Assembly (NCBI GenBank): GCA_000092065.1
Contig: CP000599.1
Direction: 5' to 3' (one strand)
Origin: Ostreococcus lucimarinus
Taxonomy: Eukaryota
DNA length: 64,000 nucleotides
The translations under genes and the position numbers were made by a program. The notes beneath the pieces were generated by a model. It had not been told where the DNA came from and made no database searches. It was given only the letters and a program-made list of their open reading frames with translations. Numbering within the stretch: position 1 is the first letter of the stretch; each line of letters opens with the position of its first letter. This document shows positions 24,463 through 33,581 of the stretch, piece after piece.

Positions 24463-24527
24463 AAAACGAGCGCCCCGATCGCGCGCGCGCGTCCGCACAC
24501 GACGCCGAGACGCGCGCGCGCGCCGTC

Positions 24528-25610
24528 ATGCTTCGTCGCGCCTGCGCGCGCGCGGCGACGCGCGTCGCCGCGCTCGTCGCGCCGAGCCGCGCGATCGGCG
24601 CGCCGCTCGCGTCGCCGCGCGCGCGATTTCCGTCGCCGCCGCAACTCGTCGCGTCGGCGAATCATCGCCTCGCGAGCGCGCGCGCGGCGGCGCCTCGACC
24701 GTCGAGCGCGGGAATCGCGCGCGATCGACGCTCGGCGCGATCGAACGCGGTCGAGCGCGCGACGTACGCGACGTCGGCGCGCGCGGTGGACGCGGCGCAC
24801 CGAAGGGCGAACGCGACGCGCGCGGCGACGCGAGAGGCGCGCCGAAGGACCGGCGCGGTGGCGATCAAGACCGGGATGACGTGCGATTGGGACGCGCGAG
24901 GGACGAGGATCCCGCTCACGGTGCTGTGGATCGACGATTGCGAGGTGGTGGCGGCGAAGACGTCGAGCGGGGCGGACGGGTACGACGCGGTGCAGGTGGG
25001 ATACGGAAGCCGAAAGCCGAAGCAGGTGACCAAGGCGGAGCTGGGGTACTTTGTGCGAAGGAAAACGAACATTAAGAGAGCGCTGTGCGAGTTTCGGACG
25101 AGCGCGGACGGGGTGCTGGCGCCGGGGACGGCGATCACGGCGGCGCACTTCGCGGCGGGGCAGTACGTGGACGTGCAGGGCGTGACCAAGGGGAAAGGGT
25201 TTCAGGGACCGATGAAGCGGTGGGGGTTCTCGGGACAGCCCGCGAGTCACGGGAACACGAAGAAGCATCGCGCGCACGGGAGCATCGGGCAGTGCCAGGA
25301 CCCGGGGCGAGTTTTTAAGGGGAAGAAGATGGCGGGTCGGATGGGCGGCAGGACGCGCACGGTGCAGAGCGCGTACGTGTACAAGGTGGACACGGAGAAG
25401 AATTTGGTGTACGTCAAGGGACAAGTCCCGGGGAACGCCGGAATGGCGGTGAAGATCAGAGACAGCCTGCGGAAACCGCCGGCGCTGGACGGGAGCGAGG
25501 TGCCGTTTCCGACGGCGGTGGCTGGCGAGCACCCGACGGGGGTCTTCGTCGCGCCGCCGCAGGGCGCGGATCCGTTCGGTAACCCCGAACCGGTGAAGCA
25601 GCGCGCGTGA
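24528..25610 (+). CDS. MRPL3: Organellar (mitochondrial-type) ribosomal protein uL3
   Basis: KGKGFQGPMKRWGFSGQPASHGNTKKHRAHGSIG...GRVFKGKKMAGRMGGRTRTVQSAYVYKVDTEKNLVYVKGQVPGN, preceded by an Arg/Ala-rich presequence. Confidence 0.9.
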   Translation: MLRRACARAATRVAALVAPSRAIGAPLASPRARFPSPPQLVASANHRLASARAAAPRPSSAGIARDRRSARSNAVERATYATSARAVDAAHRRANATRAATREARRRTGAVAIKTGMTCDWDARGTRIPLTVLWIDDCEVVAAKTSSGADGYDAVQVGYGSRKPKQVTKAELGYFVRRKTNIKRALCEFRTSADGVLAPGTAITAAHFAAGQYVDVQGVTKGKGFQGPMKRWGFSGQPASHGNTKKHRAHGSIGQCQDPGRVFKGKKMAGRMGGRTRTVQSAYVYKVDTEKNLVYVKGQVPGNAGMAVKIRDSLRKPPALDGSEVPFPTAVAGEHPTGVFVAPPQGADPFGNPEPVKQRA

Positions 25611-25890
25611 GCGCGAGCGCGAGACGCGGACTATCTAGCTACTTAGACGACGGCGAGACGTTCGTTCGGTGTGATTGAATAGAAGTCGTAGTAACGACGG
25701 AACCCCGTGCGAATGAATATTAAATGAAACGCGCGCGCGCGCGTTCGCCTATTGATACCGACTAGAATGCATGCATGCACGCGCGAACGAACGAACGATC
25801 GATCGAACGAGCGAGCGAACGAACCCCCGTTCGCCCGCCCGCGAGCGCGCCTCGCGCTCGCGCGACCGCGTCCGCTCGCGCGCGCCCCCC

Positions 25891-26553
25891 TCACCGCTCT
25901 CGCGGCGCCTCCAACAACAACGGCTTGAGTATGTCCCAAGTCTTCGCCAACACCGCCGTCTTATAGCACAAAAACCCACAAAACGTCGCCCCGTACGAGA
26001 AATCAAACGGCAAATCCAACCGATTCCAGCACGCCGTGAACACGACGAGCGCCGTCGGCACCAACAGTCGTCTCTGCAGCAGCGCCCTCGAGTACACGCC
26101 GCCGACTTTGCCGAACGCGCCGCTCAGCATCGCGCCCACGTCCGTCACCGGTTCGTACACCAAATTTCGCGTGTAATCCGCCTCGCTGACGTTCCCATTT
26201 TCTAAGCTCTCGCTGACGCCGTCGACGTAGTCTTGGAGCAATCTGAGGTAGCCGAGCGCGCCCGCCGAGCCGAGCGCCGCGCTCAGCCCCGGCGCGACGC
26301 CGTACCCCAGCAGGCAGTACGCCGACAGCGCCGCGCCGTGCGCGAGCGTCGTCGAGCTCAGCTCCCGCTTCAACGCGACGTACTCCTCGTCGCTCATTCG
26401 CTTCTCATCGAGCGCGTCCGCGGGCGTCGCGCGACGCGGCGTCGCGATGTTTCCGCGCCGAGGGTTTCGTCGATTCGCATTCGGCGCCCGCGCGGCGCGT
26501 CCGAGCGCGCGCGCGTCCGTGCGCGTCGATCGCGACGTCGACGACGATCGCAT
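25891..26553 (-). CDS. Four-TM membrane protein, CGL160/ATP-synthase-protein-I-like (tentative)
   Basis: EYVALKRELSSTTLAHGAALSAYCLLGYG...LGYLRLLQDYVDG...RRLLVPTALVVFTACWNRL...FCGFLCYKTAVL. I chose the start at Met 26553 because ORF start 26844 would overlap the PIS gene. The family call comes from memory of CGL160-type sequences. Confidence 0.55.
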   Translation of the reverse strand: MRSSSTSRSTRTDARALGRAARAPNANRRNPRRGNIATPRRATPADALDEKRMSDEEYVALKRELSSTTLAHGAALSAYCLLGYGVAPGLSAALGSAGALGYLRLLQDYVDGVSESLENGNVSEADYTRNLVYEPVTDVGAMLSGAFGKVGGVYSRALLQRRLLVPTALVVFTACWNRLDLPFDFSYGATFCGFLCYKTAVLAKTWDILKPLLLEAPRER

Positions 26554-26694
26554 CTCCGCCGCGACCGCGCTCGGGCGCGTCCAGACGGCGTCCAGCGCGC
26601 GCGACAGTGCGGATTGCGAAATTGCACTTTTTGGGGACGCGCCGAACGCGCGCGCGTTCGCACTCCTCGACGCGCCCCGGACGCGCCGCGCGTC

Positions 26695-27474
26695 ATGCCT
26701 CCGCGCAAAAAAGCATCTTCGACCGACGCGCGCGGCTCGCGCGCGCGCGCGCCGGCGAAATCGGCGTCCAAGGGCGACGACGCGACGCGAACGCGACCGC
26801 GCGGTCGAATCGACGCGCCGCGCGCATCCTTCTTCTCGCGCCACGCCAACGTGTACGCGTACGCGCCGAATCTCGTCGGGTACGCCCGCATCGCGCTCGC
26901 GATCTGCGCCCTGAGGACCGCGTTCGCGGACGTGCGGACGTGTCTGCTGTGTTACTTCGCGTCGTTCGCGTGCGACGAGCTCGACGGCCGCCTCGCGCGG
27001 CGATACGATCAGTGCTCCGAGTTCGGTCGAGCGCTGGACATGATCACCGATAGGCTGGCGACGTCGGGATTATTGGTCGTGCTCGCGATGGAGCATCGAG
27101 AGTGGTACGCGACGTGCGTGGGATTGCTGGCGCTGGACGTGGCGTCGCACTGGACGCACGCGTACGTCCAGCTCATGATCGGCGCCGACGGTCACAAATC
27201 CATCGGCGACGAGTCCTTCTTTCTGTTGCGGTGGTACTACGGGAATCGGATATTTATGGGCGCGTGCTGCGTCAGCGTGGAGGTGCTGTATCTGTGTTTG
27301 CACGCGATGCGCGCGGATCCCGCGTTCGTCGGTTTTCGCGCGCTCGGGCCGCTGACGTTTTCGGCGCTCGCGCGTCTCGCGATTCCCGGGTTCGTCGTCA
27401 AGCAGATGGCCAACTGCGCGCAGTTGTTCGAGGCGTGCGAAACGTTGGTGAGGATCGATCGCATGGCGATTTAG
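26695..27474 (+). CDS. PIS1: CDP-diacylglycerol--inositol 3-phosphatidyltransferase (phosphatidylinositol synthase)
   Basis: CDP-alcohol phosphatidyltransferase motif DELDGRLARRYDQCSEFGRALDMITDR, preceded by YAPNLVGYARIALAI. The start MPPRKK at 26695 is in frame with ORF 26233..27474. Confidence 0.88.
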   Translation: MPPRKKASSTDARGSRARAPAKSASKGDDATRTRPRGRIDAPRASFFSRHANVYAYAPNLVGYARIALAICALRTAFADVRTCLLCYFASFACDELDGRLARRYDQCSEFGRALDMITDRLATSGLLVVLAMEHREWYATCVGLLALDVASHWTHAYVQLMIGADGHKSIGDESFFLLRWYYGNRIFMGACCVSVEVLYLCLHAMRADPAFVGFRALGPLTFSALARLAIPGFVVKQMANCAQLFEACETLVRIDRMAI

Positions 27475-27495
27475 CGCGGCCGCGACGCGTCCGGA

Positions 27496-27500
27496 TGTAA
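27496..27500 (+). terminator. TGTAA candidate poly(A) signal for PIS
   Basis: ccggatgtaaaacg, 22 nt after the stop. Confidence 0.35.
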
Positions 27501-27648
27501 AACGAATGAAATCCGTCTTCGACGCGCGTCGCTTCGCGTCGTCCCGCGGCGCGCTGGGTGTTACCCCGCACACCGTCGCGCGGACGCGCGCGTCGCGCGA
27601 TATTTCGACGCCGAGTCGACGAACGCGTCGTCGACAAAGCTCGGCGTC

Positions 27649-29019
27649 ATGCAGAGCGCCGAAAAACGCCCGCGGTACGCCCTGATCGACTGCGAAGACG
27701 ACGCGAGGTGGCACGGCTTGGCCCAGTGCATCGTCAAACTTTTCGGCCGCGACGACGAAATCTGGCACCACTACCGCGCGTGCGACGGCGAGTTGCCGTC
27801 GAAAGAGATGTTCGCGACGTACGACGGCGTGGTGGTGTCGGGGAGCTCGCACAAGGCGGAGTGGGACACGAACGGGACGCCGCGGTGGACGCGAGCGCTG
27901 GGCGAGTGGCTGCGACGCGCGACGGACGATCGACATCCCGAGTACACGCGCGACGCCGACGGAGGAAAGAAAAAGGTGAAAATATTAGCGATGACGTTCG
28001 CGGGGTACCTGTGCGCGATGGCGAACGGGGGGGCGGTGGGGATGATTCCGAACGGCGGACACGTCGTCGGGGCGACGGCGATGAAGACGACGGAGGCGTG
28101 GCGACGATCGAAAGCGTTCGTCAAGGCGCGGGAGACGTACGGTGAACCGATGGATGGTAAGGGAGAGACGCTGGTGGTGCATCAAAATCGCGCGCAGAGG
28201 ATTGAGCGATTGCCCGAGGGCGCGACGGCGACGACGACGAGCGGAGACGGGGAGATTGAAATGTGGACGACGCGCGATGGACGCTGTTTAGCGTGGCAGC
28301 ACTCGTTCAGCGATGGCGTCGCGAGCGTGTTGTCGCACAAAGTCGAGAGCGGGCTCGAGGCGAGGCGGTCCGAGAAGAGCGCGGCGGCGGCGGGGGACGT
28401 AAAGCCGGATGATTTGCCAAACAACGACGCCGGGTTTCTCATCGGCGTCGCGCGCGCGTTTTTGCGCGACGGCGCGCTCGCGAGCGACGAAGACGAAGAA
28501 TATTTACGCACTCGCCGCCGCGAGGCGCGCGAGACTTTGTCGTGGGCGGCGCGACGGAGAGAGGAAATCATGGCGGCGCGCGCGGCGCGCGGCGCGCGGC
28601 CCGGCGCGGCCAACGCCAAACGCGACGCCGCGAACGATGGTTCGACCGCGCCAGCGATCGTCGAGCGAGAAGAATCCGCGCGCACGCAAGCCATGGCCGC
28701 GCGCGCGTTCACCAAAATCGCCGACACCGTCAACGCCGAGCTCTCGCTCGCCGCGAGCGAGGTTCGATTTCTCCAAAACGCCAACGAAACCGCCGCTCGC
28801 GAGTACGACGCCGTCGGCGAATCCATCGCCGACTTGCACGTCTTCATCGGCGCATTAAAAGCCAAGGACGAGGCGATGAAACCAAAGTTAGACGCGATCT
28901 TAGCCATCGAAGGCGAGGTGGACGCGTTGGAGACGCTCGCGCGCGCCGTCGACAAGCGCGTCTCCGCGCTCGAGCTTCGTCTCAAATCCATCAAGTCCAA
29001 GCGCGCGAGCGCGACGTGA
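27649..29019 (+). CDS. BLOC1S2: Fusion protein: degenerate class-I glutamine-amidotransferase-like domain + BLOC-1/BORC subunit 2 (BLOS2) domain
   Basis: The N-terminal half follows the GATase1 layout (YALIDCEDD...YDGVVVSGSSH...KILAMTFAGYLCAMANGGAV...LAWQHSFS), but the nucleophile Cys and the His of HPE are substituted. The C-terminal roughly 95 aa align without gaps to my recollection of human BLOC1S2 (ELS/TxxxSExxxxLxNxN...Y...L.P.LD.I..IE..V.ALE..A...D....LE..K). Confidence 0.7.
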   Translation: MQSAEKRPRYALIDCEDDARWHGLAQCIVKLFGRDDEIWHHYRACDGELPSKEMFATYDGVVVSGSSHKAEWDTNGTPRWTRALGEWLRRATDDRHPEYTRDADGGKKKVKILAMTFAGYLCAMANGGAVGMIPNGGHVVGATAMKTTEAWRRSKAFVKARETYGEPMDGKGETLVVHQNRAQRIERLPEGATATTTSGDGEIEMWTTRDGRCLAWQHSFSDGVASVLSHKVESGLEARRSEKSAAAAGDVKPDDLPNNDAGFLIGVARAFLRDGALASDEDEEYLRTRRREARETLSWAARRREEIMAARAARGARPGAANAKRDAANDGSTAPAIVEREESARTQAMAARAFTKIADTVNAELSLAASEVRFLQNANETAAREYDAVGESIADLHVFIGALKAKDEAMKPKLDAILAIEGEVDALETLARAVDKRVSALELRLKSIKSKRASAT

Positions 29020-29043
29020 GCGCCGCGCCCGCGCGCGTGCCAT

Positions 29044-29048
29044 TGTAA
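29044..29048 (+). terminator. TGTAA candidate poly(A) signal for the GATase-BLOS2 gene
   Basis: gccattgtaaattatt, 25 nt after the stop. Confidence 0.35.
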
Positions 29049-29160
29049 ATTATTATTTTAAACCAGCGCTCGCTCGCGCGTTAGACGCGTTCCAATCGCC
29101 GCTCGCCTCGTCGAACGCTCGCCTCGCGTCCGCACACCGCGACGCCGCCCATCCCTCGCG

Positions 29161-29526
29161 ATGTCCGATCGCGTCCCCGACGCCCTCGACGCCGTCACGA
29201 ACGAAGATCGTTTCACCGTCGAGCTCGAGTTCGTGCAATCGCTCGCCAATCCGCGCTACGTCCACTTCTTAGCCTCAAAGGGCGTCCTCAGGGATGACAG
29301 ATTCATCGCGTATCTCCGCTATCTGCGCTACTGGGAGCGCCCGGAGTACGCGAAATTCATCCTCTACCCCCACTGCCTGCGGTTTCGAAGGCTCCTGCTC
29401 GACGACGCCTTCCGCGTCGCGATGGAGAACCCGCGAAACGCCGAGCGCGCGTTCAAGGCGCAGTTTGAACGCTGGAGCGCGCGCGGCGCGGCGCCGAGCC
29501 GCGCCGACGCGGACGCGAACGCGTGA
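29161..29526 (+). CDS. MED31: Mediator complex subunit 31 (SOH1)
   Basis: RFTVELEFVQSLANPRYVHFLASKGVLRDDRFIAYLRYLRYWERPEYAKFILYPHCLRFRRLL is the canonical MED31 core. Confidence 0.92.
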   Translation: MSDRVPDALDAVTNEDRFTVELEFVQSLANPRYVHFLASKGVLRDDRFIAYLRYLRYWERPEYAKFILYPHCLRFRRLLLDDAFRVAMENPRNAERAFKAQFERWSARGAAPSRADADANA

Positions 29527-29650
29527 CGGTTCGCGCGATGCGAGCGCGAAAAAGAGGGATTCGCGTCGCCGCGCGTCGACGACGACCCTCGCGCGTCGGC
29601 GCCGCTCGGCGCCGCGTCGCGCGTTGAAATTACACCGCGCGCGGCGCTGA

Positions 29651-29673
29651 TTTAGGGTTTAGGGTTTAGGGTT
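29651..29673 (+). repeat. Interstitial plant-type telomere repeat (TTTAGGG)x3 / tandem telo-boxes
   Basis: tttagggtttagggtttagggtt. It lies 125 nt after the MED31 stop and 38 nt before the ATG at 29711. Confidence 0.95.
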
Positions 29674-29710
29674 CGCCGCGCGTCGACGCCGCACACGCCG
29701 ACGCGGCGCC

Positions 29711-30430
29711 ATGGCGTCCGCGGACGACCCCTCGCGCGCGCGCTTCGGCGCCGCCATGCTCGACGGCTTCGCCGTCGACGTCTCGCACCAGGAGATCGAG
29801 CGCGTCGTCGTCGAGCTCGAGGAACTGTACCGAAGCCAACCGGGCGAGTGGCTGCCGATCGCCGGCATCGGCGACTACCTCGCGCGCGAGCTCGGATACG
29901 AGGACCTGGACGAGTTCGAGGACGCGCTGAAGAGCGATTTCGCCGCCTTCGTCGGGAAACTGCCGCACGTGGTGATCTCGCGCGTGGAGAGCGAACTGAC
30001 GCCGGGGACGTTTCGGGACGTCTTCAAGGTGACGACGCCGGCGGCGACGGGAAAAGCGGCGAAACCGCGCGTCATGCGATTGCGGGTGCGAAACAGAGAG
30101 GATCTGTGGCGAGTGTTCATGAAATCGCCGAACACGGCGCTGGAGATTCCGGAGATTGATTTTTACGTCGGCGGCGACGCGAAGCGCGCGGTGGACTCGG
30201 TGTACAACCACGTCGCGGCGTGCGTGTTCAATCTCGAGACGCACGTCGCGCACATGGCGACGAGCGCGGAAACCGAGGATGAGCGTCGAGGGATCTTGGA
30301 GACGTGCGAGGCGCTGCGAGGGATGTTGGATTTAGAGCGGGAGTTTACGCTCGTCGCGCGAGACGCCGACGGCGCGTGCGCGTTCAAACCGGACGACGGC
30401 GTCGAGATCGAGTACGTCGACGACGCGTGA
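29711..30430 (+). CDS. Hypothetical conserved-looking acidic protein
   Basis: 239-aa ORF with ATG at 29711 and coding-like composition (GEWLPIAGIGDYLARELGYEDLDEFEDALKSDF...). No family recognised. Confidence 0.6.
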   Translation: MASADDPSRARFGAAMLDGFAVDVSHQEIERVVVELEELYRSQPGEWLPIAGIGDYLARELGYEDLDEFEDALKSDFAAFVGKLPHVVISRVESELTPGTFRDVFKVTTPAATGKAAKPRVMRLRVRNREDLWRVFMKSPNTALEIPEIDFYVGGDAKRAVDSVYNHVAACVFNLETHVAHMATSAETEDERRGILETCEALRGMLDLEREFTLVARDADGACAFKPDDGVEIEYVDDA

Positions 30431-30672
30431 TCGAGCGCCGTCCATCGTAAAAAATGTATTAGCGCGCTTGTAACGCCGGCGCACGCTAGCTCGAACCGCG
30501 CGCTTCGATCGCGCGTCCCGTCCCGCGTCCCGAGCGCGTCCCGAGCGCGTCCCCGTCCCGCACACCTCGACGTCTCGCGACGCCGCCGCGACGCGTCGCG
30601 CCGCGACGACGCCGACGTCGACGACGCGCGCGCCGAGCGTCGCGAGACGCGCGAACCGCGCGATCGCGCGCG

Positions 30673-31646
30673 ATGCGTCCGAGCGGTCGACTTTTGCGCG
30701 CCTTCAAGGGGTGGTTGGACACGCGCGCCGTCGTGCGCGTCGCCGGCGCGGACGCCGCGGCGTTTCTGCAGGTGCGCTCGATGTTTACGTATCGCCATCG
30801 TTTCAAAACTGACGCGACGACCAGGGCGCGGTGACGAACGACGTGCGCGCGCTGCGCGAGGGCGGCGACGCGGCGTACTGCGCGACGCTCACGCCGAAGG
30901 GAAAAATCTTCGCCGACGCGTTCGTTCGACTCGCCGGGAGCGAATCGGATGAATTTTTATTGGACGTCGATCGAGAAAAGTCGAGCGAATTTTTGCGCGC
31001 GCTCAGGATGCTGAGCCTGAGGAAACGGGTGACGATCGAGGACGCGAACGAGCATCGCGTCGTCGTCGCGAGCGCGGACGCGGACGTCGGGGATTCGAGC
31101 GCGCGCGCGGTGCGGAGGGACGAGCGATTGGAACAATTAGGGTTTAGGGGTATAGTGCCCGCGTCCGACGCGGCGTGGCGCGACGCGGTGGCGGACGCGC
31201 ACGCGCGAACGCGAATCGCGCTCGGCGTCGCCGAGGGCGCGAGCGAGCTCGCGAACGCGTTACCGCTCGAGTGCAATTTCGACGCTTTGAACGGCGTGAG
31301 TTTCACCAAAGGGTGCTACGTCGGGCAAGAGAACACGGCGAGGCAGCGGTTTCGAGGGGTCGTGCGCAAGCGCATCGCGCCTTTCGTTGCGATCGAACCC
31401 GGCGCGCGCGCGCCGAGCGTCGGGGGAAAAATCGTAAACGAACGCGGCGACGTCGTGGGTGATGTCATCGCGGCGATCGAAGACGAGGACGCGGTCTTGG
31501 GTTTGGTGCGCGCGCGCATGAGTTTCATTCGCGCGCACGTTGCGGGCGAACCAGGGTCGGCGTTTCGAATCGCCGACGGCGCGCGCGTCGGCGTCGAGCC
31601 CCCGAGTTGGTGGCCGACCGAGTGGCTCGACGCCGCCGAGGAGTGA
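30673..31646 (+). CDS. IBA57: Folate-binding YgfZ/IBA57 (CAF17) family Fe-S cluster assembly factor, two exons (30673..30771 and 30825..31646)
   Basis: Exon 1 is MRPSGRLLRAFKGWLDTRAVVRVAGADAAAFLQ. Exon 2 is GAVTNDVRAL...ATLTPKGKI... with the signature FTKGCYVGQENTARQRFRGVVRKR. The joined length is 921 nt. Confidence 0.8.
30772..30824 (+). other. Spliceosomal intron (53 nt) in IBA57-like gene
   Basis: CAG|GTGCGC donor, AAACTGACG branch at 30806-30814, GACCAG acceptor ending at 30824. Confidence 0.75.
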
Positions 31647-31728
31647 AGCGCCGAGGAGGAAAGAGTAGCTGCGTTTATAGAATCGTGCGTGCGCACGAGC
31701 TTTAGGTTTTATCACAAATCATTCGTTC

Positions 31729-32835
31729 TCATTCGTCCTCCTCGTCGTCCACGACCAACGCGCGTTTCTTTCGCTCCTTGGGCGCGCCGACGGCTTCGTC
31801 TTCGTCTTCGTCCAACGAGCCCGCGGCGACGTCCTGTTCCATCGCGCCCGCACCATCGCTACCGGCCGCACCATCGTTCTCCTCGGCCTCTAAGAAATCG
31901 GCGTCCATCCGCGCCGCGCCCCCTTCCGCGTCGACGTCGCCGCCGGCGTCGTCGCGTCGTTCGTAATACGACTCCGTGTACCCGCGATCGTTTCTCCCCC
32001 CCGCCGACCACATCCCCGTCCGCTCGCGGTCTTCCCGCATCATCTTCGCCTGTTTCCTCTCCAACGCCGCGCTCTCCCTCGCCGCGCGCTCTAGCTCCGC
32101 GTCCAACGCCTCCTTCTCTCGCTCCGGATCGACGCGCGACACGTACGCCATCGTCCGCGTCGCCCTCGATCCGTGCTTCTTATCGATCGCCGCCGTCAAC
32201 CTCTTGTGCGTCCGCGAGTCCAACGTCGCGGGATTAAACGTCATCTTTGTCGTCAACCGTCGCTGCGCCTTCATCAACCCTTGTTTCCGCACGTACAAGA
32301 ACGAATCCGCGTCCGCCACCGCCCGTTCGTCGCATCGCAGGTACTCGTCGCCGACGACCAAATGCGTCGTTCCATCGTCCCATCGCACGTAATACGCGTT
32401 ACTCTCCGCCTCACCCGTGCTTTCATTCATCCTCCATCGCACCGTGTTCTCGTTCGAGGTCCTGATGCGCGTGACGCCGTCGACGTCGACGAATTCCTCG
32501 CGTTCGCCGTCGTCTCGATGCGTCGCCGCGTCGAAGGGTTTGGGCTCGGCGCCGAAGATGTTGCTCAATTTCGCAATCTTCGTCTCGTCCTCGATCGTCT
32601 CGCGCCCCGCTTCGGCGCTCGGCAGCTCTAATCGCAACGGTTCGCCCTTCGCTCGCGTCGCCGGGTCGTCCTCGTCGTTTTCCGCGTCGTCCGGGAGCTC
32701 TAAAGACGATTTAAACGTGGATTCGCGCCCGCGATCGTCGCGGTTTTCGAGCGATTCCGTCGCGACGCGGTCTCCGTCGTCGTCGTCTTCGCTGTCGGAA
32801 CCAAAAATGTTCTTCACCAAATCCACGTCCGCCAT
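31729..32835 (-). CDS. LEO1: RNA polymerase II-associated factor LEO1 (Paf1 complex)
   Basis: Leo1 core NTVRWRMNESTGEAESNAYYVRWDDGTTHLVVGDEYL...LTTKMTFNPATLDSRTHKRL, with acidic termini. The start is MADVDLVKNIFGSDSEDDDD at 32835. Upstream ORF sequence overlaps the GNAT gene and is not coding. Confidence 0.85.
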   Translation of the reverse strand: MADVDLVKNIFGSDSEDDDDGDRVATESLENRDDRGRESTFKSSLELPDDAENDEDDPATRAKGEPLRLELPSAEAGRETIEDETKIAKLSNIFGAEPKPFDAATHRDDGEREEFVDVDGVTRIRTSNENTVRWRMNESTGEAESNAYYVRWDDGTTHLVVGDEYLRCDERAVADADSFLYVRKQGLMKAQRRLTTKMTFNPATLDSRTHKRLTAAIDKKHGSRATRTMAYVSRVDPEREKEALDAELERAARESAALERKQAKMMREDRERTGMWSAGGRNDRGYTESYYERRDDAGGDVDAEGGAARMDADFLEAEENDGAAGSDGAGAMEQDVAAGSLDEDEDEAVGAPKERKKRALVVDDEEDE

Positions 32836-33005
32836 GACGACGAGCGAAACCGCGCGAGCGACGCTCCGAGGCGCGATCTGGGGCGATTCCGGGGACGCCG
32901 CGCGGCGACGCGGCGACGCCGCCGCGCGGCGCGCGGCGCGAGCGACGATCTCGCGTCGCAAAACGCGGTTTCGACGTCCGAATAAATGAATAAATTTAAA
33001 TGACG

Positions 33006-33581
33006 CTATTTTACACCGCGCGGCGGCGCTTCGTCTTCGTCGCGATGCCGCGCGCACTCGAACCACGCGTCGCGGCCGTGCGTCACGCTTGACTCGCCCA
33101 AACACCGAAACCCACCGCGACGCTCGTAAAACTCGATCAGCGCGCGCTTGCACAGCAACCTGATCGTCAGCACTTGATCGCGCGCGTCGCCGAAGACGCG
33201 CGCGTCGCGTCGGTCGTCGGCGAAGCCGATCCAGTCGTCGACGTAGCGCCGCAGCGCGGCGCCGCCGAAGCCGCGGCGTCTCGCGCTCGGCGACGCGCAC
33301 ACGCTGTGCACGCACAGCGTCCGCCCGAGCGGGTCGTGATTGGTCATCGTCGCGGCGTCCAGGGCGTCGCGCGCGGTGAGCGTGCCGCAGACGTACGCGA
33401 CGACGGCGCCGTCGAGCGCGGCGACCATGAAGAATTCGCGCGCGTCGGTCGCGCGGGCGCGAAGCGTCGCGGCGGACGCGGCCTCGTCCGCGGGGTAGCT
33501 CGCGGCCTCCATCGCGGCGATGGCGTCGAGATCGGCGTCGTCGACGGCGCGGAACGTCAGGCGGTCGACGTCGGCCGACAT
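33006..33581 (-). CDS. GNAT-family N-acetyltransferase (arylalkylamine N-acetyltransferase-like)
   Basis: EAASYPADEAAS..., LCVHSVCASPSARRRGFGGAALRRYV (acetyl-CoA-binding R/Q-x-x-G-x-G/A) and LIEFYERRGGF. Confidence 0.8.
   Translation of the reverse strand: MSADVDRLTFRAVDDADLDAIAAMEAASYPADEAASAATLRARATDAREFFMVAALDGAVVAYVCGTLTARDALDAATMTNHDPLGRTLCVHSVCASPSARRRGFGGAALRRYVDDWIGFADDRRDARVFGDARDQVLTIRLLCKRALIEFYERRGGFRCLGESSVTHGRDAWFECARHRDEDEAPPRGVK

Follow-up and report, generated by a model that had tools for sequence, protein, structure and literature searches.

A GGP1-like domain without catalytic residues fused to BLOS2 in Ostreococcus lucimarinus and its relatives

BLOS2 (BLOC1S2), a core subunit common to BLOC-1 and BORC, is seen as a small coiled-coil protein with a purely structural role. 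Known BLOS2 proteins are stand-alone, whereas in the protein described here BLOS2 makes up only the C-terminal quarter of 456 residues. The other closest described system is Arabidopsis GGP1 (MEROPS family C26, class-I glutamine amidotransferases; PDB 9K7I-9K7L), a stand-alone enzyme of approximately 250 residues. Its catalytic triad is formed by C100, H192 and E194; activity is lost in C100S and H192N mutants, and Q104, the Gln of the nucleophile elbow, binds Glu at the alpha-carboxylate of the substrate (PMC12958103). The Cys-His-Glu triad has been described as fully conserved across family C26.

The reading frame and the domains that it encodes

The features of the locus in the window, i.e., the whole stretch of 64,000 nucleotides that was analysed, are listed in Table 1. 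The coding sequence was read from ATG to stop without a single internal stop codon, and the uninterrupted frame proposed in the initial annotation was recovered with exactly the same limits. Metagenome gene calls of 504 aa start at an upstream ATG at position 27506. Because this ATG was out of frame in the window, the 504-aa gene models were rejected as the true N-terminus; the 48-aa N-terminal extension of P0001 was missing or frame-shifted in the window. The coding sequence was the best-conserved stretch of the locus, with 92.8% nucleotide identity vs 81-89% in the neighbouring coding sequences.

Table 1. Positions of the fusion gene and its parts in the window.
Feature	Position	Strand	Basis
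GGP-like pseudo-amidotransferase/BLOS2 fusion CDS, complete, intronless	27649..29019	+	ORF list, 13 full-length homologue clusters
Intergenic region/5' UTR	27475..27648	+	Sequence reading
Class-I GATase/peptidase-C26 (GGP1-like) domain, aa 8-276, including the C-terminal 'FLRDG' helix	27670..28476	+	Profile, Foldseek, AF2
Degenerate nucleophile elbow A114-M-T116-F-A-G-Y120	27988..28008	+	Alignments to GGP1 and intact algal fusions
Q-G-H-P-E remnant Q217-H-S219-F-S221	28297..28311	+	Alignments to GGP1 and intact algal fusions
Conserved helix, aa 283-315 (EYLRTRRREARETLSWAARRREEI...), between the GGP-like domain and the linker	28495..28593	+	AF2 helix; mean pairwise identity 0.65 in the clade
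Low-complexity, poorly conserved linker, aa 316-345	28594..28683	+	pLDDT <50; mean pairwise identity 0.24
BLOC1_2 (BLOS2/BLOC1S2) coiled-coil domain, aa 352-446	28702..28986	+	Pfam, solved BLOC1S2 chain, AF2

The C-terminal domain was matched by Pfam BLOC1_2 (PF10046) with an E value of 8.7e-21 (74.5 bits, cutoff 33.4) over profile positions 2-96 of 96. A profile built from this domain was aligned without gaps to 105 residues of the solved BLOC1S2 chain 9tqb_H (132 aa) with an E value of 1.5e-18. The window sequence itself was 22% identical and 43% similar to this chain, and the search with the single sequence gave an E value of only 0.45. In the AF2 model, one long helix (residues 339-455) covered the BLOC1_2 region, as expected of a coiled-coil subunit. 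The BLOS2 identity assigned to the C-terminus by the initial annotation was borne out by the full-profile match and by the gapless alignment.

The low identity of the coiled-coil to solved BLOC1S2 would suit another reading, according to which the BLOC1_2 helix is merely an oligomerisation or anchoring module of a GGP-derived protein, with BLOC-1 and BORC absent in green algae. This reading was considered unlikely since the full-profile BLOC1_2 match lay far above the threshold in every fusion found, and since BLOC-1 and BORC have three subunits in common, of which BLOC1S2 is one. In addition, BORC has been inferred to be pan-eukaryotic, and its specific subunits are rarely found without the shared ones. 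Furthermore, no stand-alone green-algal BLOS2 was found in word-indexed searches with the C-terminal domain alone or with a 20-sequence alignment of this domain, which returned mostly fragments. The only stand-alone BLOC1_2 protein among the matches, P0321, was encoded next to a PMT, a cellulase and an M20 peptidase. Because these neighbours are non-algal, P0321 does not come from a green alga, and it was rejected as a green-algal BLOS2.

The N-terminal domain resembled GGP1 in fold and in domain extent. In a phmmer search, Arabidopsis GGP1 was matched by the window protein at an E value of 3e-7. The value was 7e-16 with a profile of the clade to which this protein belongs (the window clade) and 2e-46 with a wider family profile. 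The latter spanned residues 21-256 of the 260 residues of GGP1, including its C-terminal FLKG helix; the 'FLRDG' helix of the window protein corresponds to this end of GGP1. When the AF2 model (pLDDT 72.6, mostly 80-94 in the core) was searched with Foldseek, GGP1 was the top match (E 4.7e-14, target-normalised TM 0.71), followed by approximately 140 other class-I GATases. The secondary structure of the modelled N-domain was alpha/beta/alpha, and the equivalents of the GSSH loop and F101 of GGP1 were kept.

Pfam GATase (PF00117) and Peptidase_C26 (PF07722) did not match the window protein even at E<=10. NCBIfam gave nothing for it and only weak 'glutamine amidotransferase' matches, far below the cutoff, for two relatives; fusion relatives with intact motifs matched PF00117 at E values from 4e-6 to 4e-12. 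The class-I GATase layout that had been proposed for the N-terminal half was therefore upheld by the GGP1 profile and by Foldseek, but the extent of approximately 330 aa was not, as the domain ended near residue 276. Both families named at the outset, GATase1 and BLOC1S2, were matched in the HMM and fold searches. Compared with GGP1, the window protein has 180 extra residues, in which a helix and a probably flexible linker connect the GGP-type domain to the BLOS2 coiled-coil.

Replacement of the catalytic residues and conservation of the former pocket

In alignments to intact relatives, AMTFAGY corresponded to G-x-C-F-G-x-Q and QHSFS to Q-G-H-P-E, in agreement with the earlier proposal that the nucleophile elbow and the His/Glu region are replaced. 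T116 was located at the position of the catalytic C100 of GGP1, S219 at that of H192, S221 at that of E194 and Y120 at that of the Glu-binding Q104. Across the window clade, the nucleophile position was occupied by T, C, G, S or V, and therefore there was no selection for any one residue; the Gln position was an invariant Tyr. Because the triad and the Glu-binding Gln are replaced, the gamma-glutamyl thioester could presumably no longer be formed, and, judging from the sequence, the N-domain would be a pseudoenzyme.

Conservation was compared between the regions of the protein. Within the window clade, the mean pairwise identity was 0.58 for the GATase core, 0.52 for BLOC1_2 and 0.24-0.34 for the linkers. 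The core was 45-86% identical; its conservation matched or exceeded that of the BLOS2 helix and was approximately two-fold that of the linkers. The former active-site loops reached 0.78 (elsewhere in the core, 0.53), a value attained by 43 of 5000 random segment sets; these loops lie in the core of the fold, and their conservation may be partly structural. The QHSFS loop was the best-conserved segment of the N-domain, with a mean column identity of 0.91.

Some of these observations could indicate that the domain, although dead-looking, is still an enzyme that acts on another substrate with a non-canonical nucleophile or pocket, formed for example by the clade-invariant S219, S221, D222, H178 or H68. 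The four former active-site loops were the best-conserved parts of the domain, new invariant polar residues (HQNR and WQ-x-SFSD) appeared exactly there, and S66, H68 and F117, the positions of the main-chain oxyanion and of Glu binding, were kept. However, the whole triad and Q104 were replaced at once, the nucleophile position of the elbow was unconstrained, and in GGP1 the single replacement C100S or H192N is already sufficient to abolish activity (PMC12958103). Considering also that H218 was either H or C in the clade and that the domain was no longer recognised by Pfam GATase, retained catalysis appears quite improbable.

The Nei-Gojobori dN/dS ratio against a relative with 88% identity was 0.6, compared with 0.35-0.42 for neighbouring genes; the estimate is crude, its dS is oddly low, and the value is not a signature of very strong constraint. 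As dS differed 2-4-fold between genes and GC3 was approximately 0.83, dN/dS was set aside as too crude, and the conservation per region was used instead. This apparent ratio and the absence of the catalytic residues might suggest a functionless, decaying relic kept only because its deletion would disturb the BLOS2 part. Such a relic is very hard to reconcile with the degree of conservation of the core, with more than 60 invariant positions, with the absence of truncations and frameshifts in every lineage and with the confident folding of the core in the AF2 model. The domain, although judged dead as an enzyme, has remained under purifying selection, and the loops that lined its former pocket are where this selection is strongest.

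Integrity and distribution of the fusion

The fused ORF was kept, without any stop codon, in 13 homologue clusters with 47-100% identity. When HMMER was run exhaustively with the profile of the N-domain, approximately 20 further, more distant GATase+BLOC1_2 representatives emerged, also free of internal stops. Complete fused ORFs were present on MMETSP transcripts of two relatives, P0094 from the window clade and P0120 from Dolichomastix. When transcript-like contigs of the window clade were sought in Logan, the contigs found were genomic and contained several genes. Synteny was conserved in the clade, with a GC content of the loci of 0.58-0.69, and a protein identical to the window protein was found on marine metagenome contigs with unchanged neighbours. 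Hence, the two separate genes, split near 28550-28650, that the initial annotation had considered as an alternative were not observed.

Although the halves are joined by a low-complexity, poorly conserved linker and the gene calls of the window clade all come from metagenome gene callers, the idea that the single ORF is an artefact, i.e., a GATase-like gene and BLOS2 adjacent in frame by chance or a mis-assembly, is effectively refuted by the stop-free frames, the transcripts, the lack of a conserved Met ahead of BLOC1_2 (M349 is replaced by L, I or A in relatives), the independent assembly of the locus with an exact match in many samples and the same architecture in the annotated genomes of nine named algae.

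These nine algae were Dolichomastix, Myrmecia, Micractinium, Symbiochloris, Tetradesmus, Parachlorella, Scenedesmus, Chromochloris and Raphidocelis, and the distant fusions lay in Chlorophyceae, Trebouxiophyceae and Dolichomastix. Examples are the transcript of Dolichomastix tenuilepis (MMETSP0033, P0120), Raphidocelis subcapitata GBG00273.1, Symbiochloris irregularis KAK9804068.1 and Scenedesmus sp. KAF8057940.1 ('GGP4'). They share with the window protein the domain order and a conserved FLRGG helix. However, only 21-30% identity was found between them and the window protein, and all the distant fusions contained intact CFGxQ (G-x-C-F-G-x-Q), SHGD and H-P/x-E (H-P-E) motifs, i.e., they kept the Cys, His and Glu residues and passed Pfam GATase, whereas the window clade has lost all these motifs. 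Such genes are annotated as 'GMP synthase-like glutamine amidotransferase' or 'GGP4'.

In a neighbour-joining (NJ) tree rooted on GGP1 as the single outgroup, all fusions grouped together vs GGP1, and the window clade was monophyletic (100/100). As judged by GC content, this clade spans Micromonas-like and Ostreococcus-like lineages. For the window itself, GC content, gene content, occurrence in marine metagenomes and the nearest named relative pointed to a Micromonas-like alga. The tree followed class boundaries, and on this basis the window protein and the chlorophyte fusions look orthologous. It may be concluded that the fusion occurs widely among green algae and is probably ancient, with the enzyme half normally intact, and that only the dead state is clade-specific. 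The architecture had been proposed to be unreported and to belong to a picoalga. Indeed, no published description of it was found in the literature searched, but the fusion is chlorophyte-wide and is present, uncharacterised, in public protein sets.

Proposed role and implications

The best overall explanation is probably that the gene encodes the BLOS2 orthologue of a Mamiellales alga, fused to a dead GGP-type domain that acts as a non-catalytic binding module on a BORC/BLOC-1-type complex. According to this explanation, the GGP-type domain would precede the coiled-coil of the Mamiellales BLOS2 (BLOC1S2) in one polypeptide. The triad would have been kept in Chlorophyceae, Trebouxiophyceae and Dolichomastix and replaced, together with the Glu-binding Gln, in the lineage of the window protein. 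The C-terminal helix would assemble into a BORC/BLOC-1-type coiled-coil complex at endosomal or vacuolar membranes, and the tethered domain may bind a small molecule of the gamma-glutamyl type or a protein partner. For the N-terminal domain itself, a non-catalytic binding module tethered to such a complex is the most likely of the readings considered.

A wider and clearly speculative proposal, which is rather doubtful at present, is that an ancient GGP-BLOS2 fusion couples the catabolism of glutathione and gamma-glutamyl compounds to BORC/BLOC-1 in green algae. In Mamiellales, the enzyme half would then have become a ligand-sensing pseudoenzyme through which vacuole or endosome trafficking is gated by the glutathione, glutamine or sulfur status. 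If true, this would represent a nutrient-sensing input to BORC that is unrelated to the animal Ragulator route.

Through a chlorophyte-wide fusion to an enzyme of the glutathione-degrading type, the BLOC-1/BORC machinery would have its first appendage of an enzymatic or metabolite-binding kind, and the standard annotation is misleading for genes in which a GGP-like domain is fused to BLOC1_2. The ecologically dominant marine picoalgae carry a natural 'catalysis-off' version, so the contribution of the domain could be addressed by comparing the active orthologues of Dolichomastix or Chlorella with the dead ones of Micromonas or Ostreococcus. The family also offers a clean, datable case of pseudoenzyme evolution within a conserved fusion.

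Domains of the fusion protein

The window gene is probably the alga's BLOS2 subunit with a tethered pseudo-amidotransferase; its C-terminal helix would be built into a complex of the BORC/BLOC-1 type, and the dead domain would contribute binding instead of catalysis. The identification of the C-terminal half as BLOS2, proposed in the initial annotation, is solid. Pfam BLOC1_2 (PF10046) matched it over profile positions 2-96 of 96 (E 8.7e-21, 74.5 bits, cutoff 33.4), and a C-domain profile of 20 fusion proteins gave a gapless 105-residue alignment with the solved BLOC1S2 chain 9tqb_H (E 1.5e-18), with which the window sequence shares 22% identity and 43% similarity. BLOC1S2 is one of three subunits common to BLOC-1 and BORC, and both complexes are inferred to be pan-eukaryotic (PMC11513930). 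It is unlikely that the coiled-coil acts merely as an oligomerisation device for a GGP-derived protein, with no BLOC/BORC complex involved. The C-domain profile also picked up P0321 (L020 4001-4399), a stand-alone BLOC1_2 protein of 132 aa. It was rejected as a paralogue of the window gene because its neighbours (PMT, cellulase and M20 peptidase genes) point to a non-green eukaryote.

The N-terminal half had no Pfam match, even at E<=10. Arabidopsis gamma-glutamyl peptidase 1 (GGP1), a class-I glutamine amidotransferase (GATase), was found by phmmer against PDB sequences (E 3e-7), by a profile of ten close relatives (E 7e-16) and, after more distant relatives were added, at E 2e-46, covering residues 21-256 of the 260 in GGP1. 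Searches of the kind proposed for the two halves hence hit both families. The whole of GGP1 was aligned, including its C-terminal FLKG helix (AFLRDG in the window protein). Foldseek comparison of the AlphaFold2 (AF2) model (mean pLDDT 72.6, core mostly 80-94) with the PDB ranked GGP1 entries first (E 4.7e-14, target-normalised TM 0.71); GMP synthase, PabA, TrpG-type and further class-I amidotransferases came next. Since both the profile alignment to all of GGP1 and the fold match were obtained, the extent of the GGP-like domain could be set. The GATase homology claimed earlier was therefore upheld, but not its span of roughly 330 aa, as the domain ends near aa 276.

Features of the fusion gene and its protein (identity is the regional mean pairwise identity over ten representatives of the dead clade, the window protein's lineage with replaced catalytic residues)
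Feature	Position	Identity	Remark
Fusion gene	window 27649-29019 (+)		single ORF, ATG to stop without interruption, 456 aa
Most likely 5' UTR	window 27506-27648
Antisense ORF	window 28182-29000 (-)		272 aa, overlaps 3' two-thirds of fusion gene
Gene block	window ~24500-33300		RPL3, CGL160, CDP-alcohol phosphatidyltransferase, fusion, Med31, ZPR1-like 239-aa ORF, CAF17, Leo1, acetyltransferase
GGP-like domain	about aa 8-276
GATase core		0.58
Linker	aa 236-253	0.34
GGP C-terminal helix	near aa 271-276 (AFLRDG)	0.80
Extra conserved helix	aa 283-315	0.65	AF2 and clade conservation
Linker	about aa 316-345	0.24 (aa 313-345)	low-confidence, weakly conserved (AF2 and clade conservation)
Single long helix	aa 339-455		AF2 model
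BLOC1_2	aa 352-446	0.52
GGP1 C100	T116		replaced
GGP1 H192	S219		replaced
GGP1 E194	S221		replaced
GGP1 Q104	Y120		replaced
GGP1 S68	S66		kept
GGP1 H70	H68		kept
GGP1 F101	F117		kept

Catalytic residues and selection

The GGP1 triad C100/H192/E194 is completely conserved throughout family C26, and activity is undetectable in the mutants C100S and H192N; the side chain of Q104 binds the alpha-carboxylate of Glu, with main-chain groups of S68, H70, F101, Q156 and D157 making up the rest of the S1 site and oxyanion hole (PMC12958103). AMTFAGY and QHSFS had been read as replacing the nucleophile elbow and the HPE region, and alignments to GGP1, from which the tabulated residue mapping was taken, placed the triad positions exactly there. 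Across the 13 clusters of close homologues, the nucleophile position was occupied by T, C, G, S or V, and that of H218 by H or C. Judged from these sequences, no residue is maintained at the nucleophile position, and the loss of canonical chemistry in the window protein is well supported. Catalysis by a new mechanism is quite doubtful.

The four former active-site loops (GSSH loop, elbow, HQNR strand and WQHSFSDGVASVLS loop) were more conserved than the remaining core (0.78 vs 0.53), a value matched by just 43 of 5000 random segment sets of equal lengths. Compared with an 88%-identical relative, the fusion CDS showed 92.8% nucleotide identity, versus 81-89% for neighbouring CDSs and 61-73% for intergenic DNA. 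Its Nei-Gojobori dN/dS against this relative was 0.6 (0.35-0.42 for neighbouring genes), a crude estimate that is uninformative. Between window 26695-30430 and the relative's contig L009, dS of the fusion gene was ~0.11, 2-4 times lower than in three neighbours (0.22-0.40); noise, constraint on codons or GC, an overlapping feature or a recent transfer from one lineage to another could account for this. Taken together, the conservation data indicate that selection maintains the dead domain, most of all the former pocket region. That the domain is a relic without function is very improbable and effectively excluded by its conservation.

Gene structure and locus

As claimed initially, the two halves belong to one gene. 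In a homologue search giving 13 clusters (47-100% identity), 12 covered 96-100% of the query, the exception being the truncated P0012. No stop codon between the halves was found in any of the 13 clusters, and there was no conserved Met ahead of BLOC1_2, M349 being replaced by L, I or A in relatives. An MMETSP transcript in the 51% cluster, P0094 (429 aa), has its ORF annotated as complete. An artefact joining two genes has next to no probability, being effectively excluded by conservation, transcripts and annotated genomes.

Some metagenome gene callers gave 501-504-aa versions starting at ATG 27506. By sequence reading, this ATG is 143 nt 5' of 27649 and hence in another frame in the window, a difference due to a 1-nt indel between strains. 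Therefore, the intervening segment was taken as 5' UTR, not a coding extension, and 27649 is the plausible start codon. Antisense ORFs such as that in the table are frequent by chance at such GC content.

The window (GC 0.58-0.71 per 2 kb) carries tightly packed eukaryotic genes. The tabulated gene order was the same on metagenome contigs encoding an identical protein. Gene order around the fusion was conserved in contigs L001, L003-L008, L010-L016 and L018, in relatives down to ~50-60% protein identity (GC 0.58-0.69). Synteny persisted in one lineage at 60% identity (GC 0.64) and was partial in another at 51% (GC 0.585); their GC and gene content, together with a marine occurrence, suggest that these are Micromonas-like and Ostreococcus-like, respectively.

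The fusion across green algae

When 1.84 billion representatives were searched exhaustively by HMMER with the N-domain profile, 422 matches came up; of the top 150, about 20 additional representatives carried both Pfam GATase and BLOC1_2. These included Dolichomastix tenuilepis (Mamiellophyceae, Dolichomastigales; MMETSP0033 transcript), the Trebouxiophyceae [Myrmecia] bisecta, Micractinium tetrahymenae, Symbiochloris irregularis and Parachlorella kessleri, and the Chlorophyceae Tetradesmus obliquus, Scenedesmus sp. (auto-named 'GGP4'), Chromochloris zofingiensis and Raphidocelis subcapitata. All of these distant fusions retain G-x-C-F-G-x-Q, SHGD and H-(P/x)-E, whereas the motifs are replaced in the window protein. 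Chlorophycean fusions are 150-400 aa longer than the others: P0192 (Chromochloris Cz11g17100.t1, 819 aa), P0194 (Raphidocelis, 612 aa) and P0254 (Scenedesmus, 598 aa). The extra length could represent additional domains or gene-model errors.

In a quick neighbour-joining distance tree of N-domains rooted on GGP1, the Chlorophyceae and Trebouxiophyceae groups were both recovered, the dead clade was monophyletic (100/100), and P0138, on a long branch, was its sister (96/100). P0138 is also degenerate: Asn takes the place of the Cys, and QGHPE is replaced by LAWQHTLLLD. Long insertions rich in E/K/S/N and a low-GC coding style mark this 511-aa protein (Logan/ENA contigs), which, at a guess, may come from a Bathycoccus-like lineage. 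The simplest history is a single GGP-BLOS2 fusion early in Chlorophyta, predating the dead clade, and then, once Dolichomastigales had diverged, a single loss of catalysis in the stem of the window's clade. That there was a single loss is provisional because of the quick distance method and the long branch of P0138.

The architecture had been presented as unreported and as that of a picoalga. Full-text searches found no paper joining BLOC-1, BORC or BLOS2 to an amidotransferase/GGP domain or to these algae, but the fusion sits in public databases (as 'glutamine amidotransferase domain-containing protein', 'GMP synthase-like glutamine amidotransferase' or 'GGP4') and spans chlorophytes. Each of the two domain families is well known; the fusion is undescribed yet database-visible, and the pseudoenzyme form is clade-specific. 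The fusion provides a concrete, testable lead to a putative link, at the sequence level, between gamma-glutamyl/glutathione chemistry and endolysosomal trafficking in green algae.
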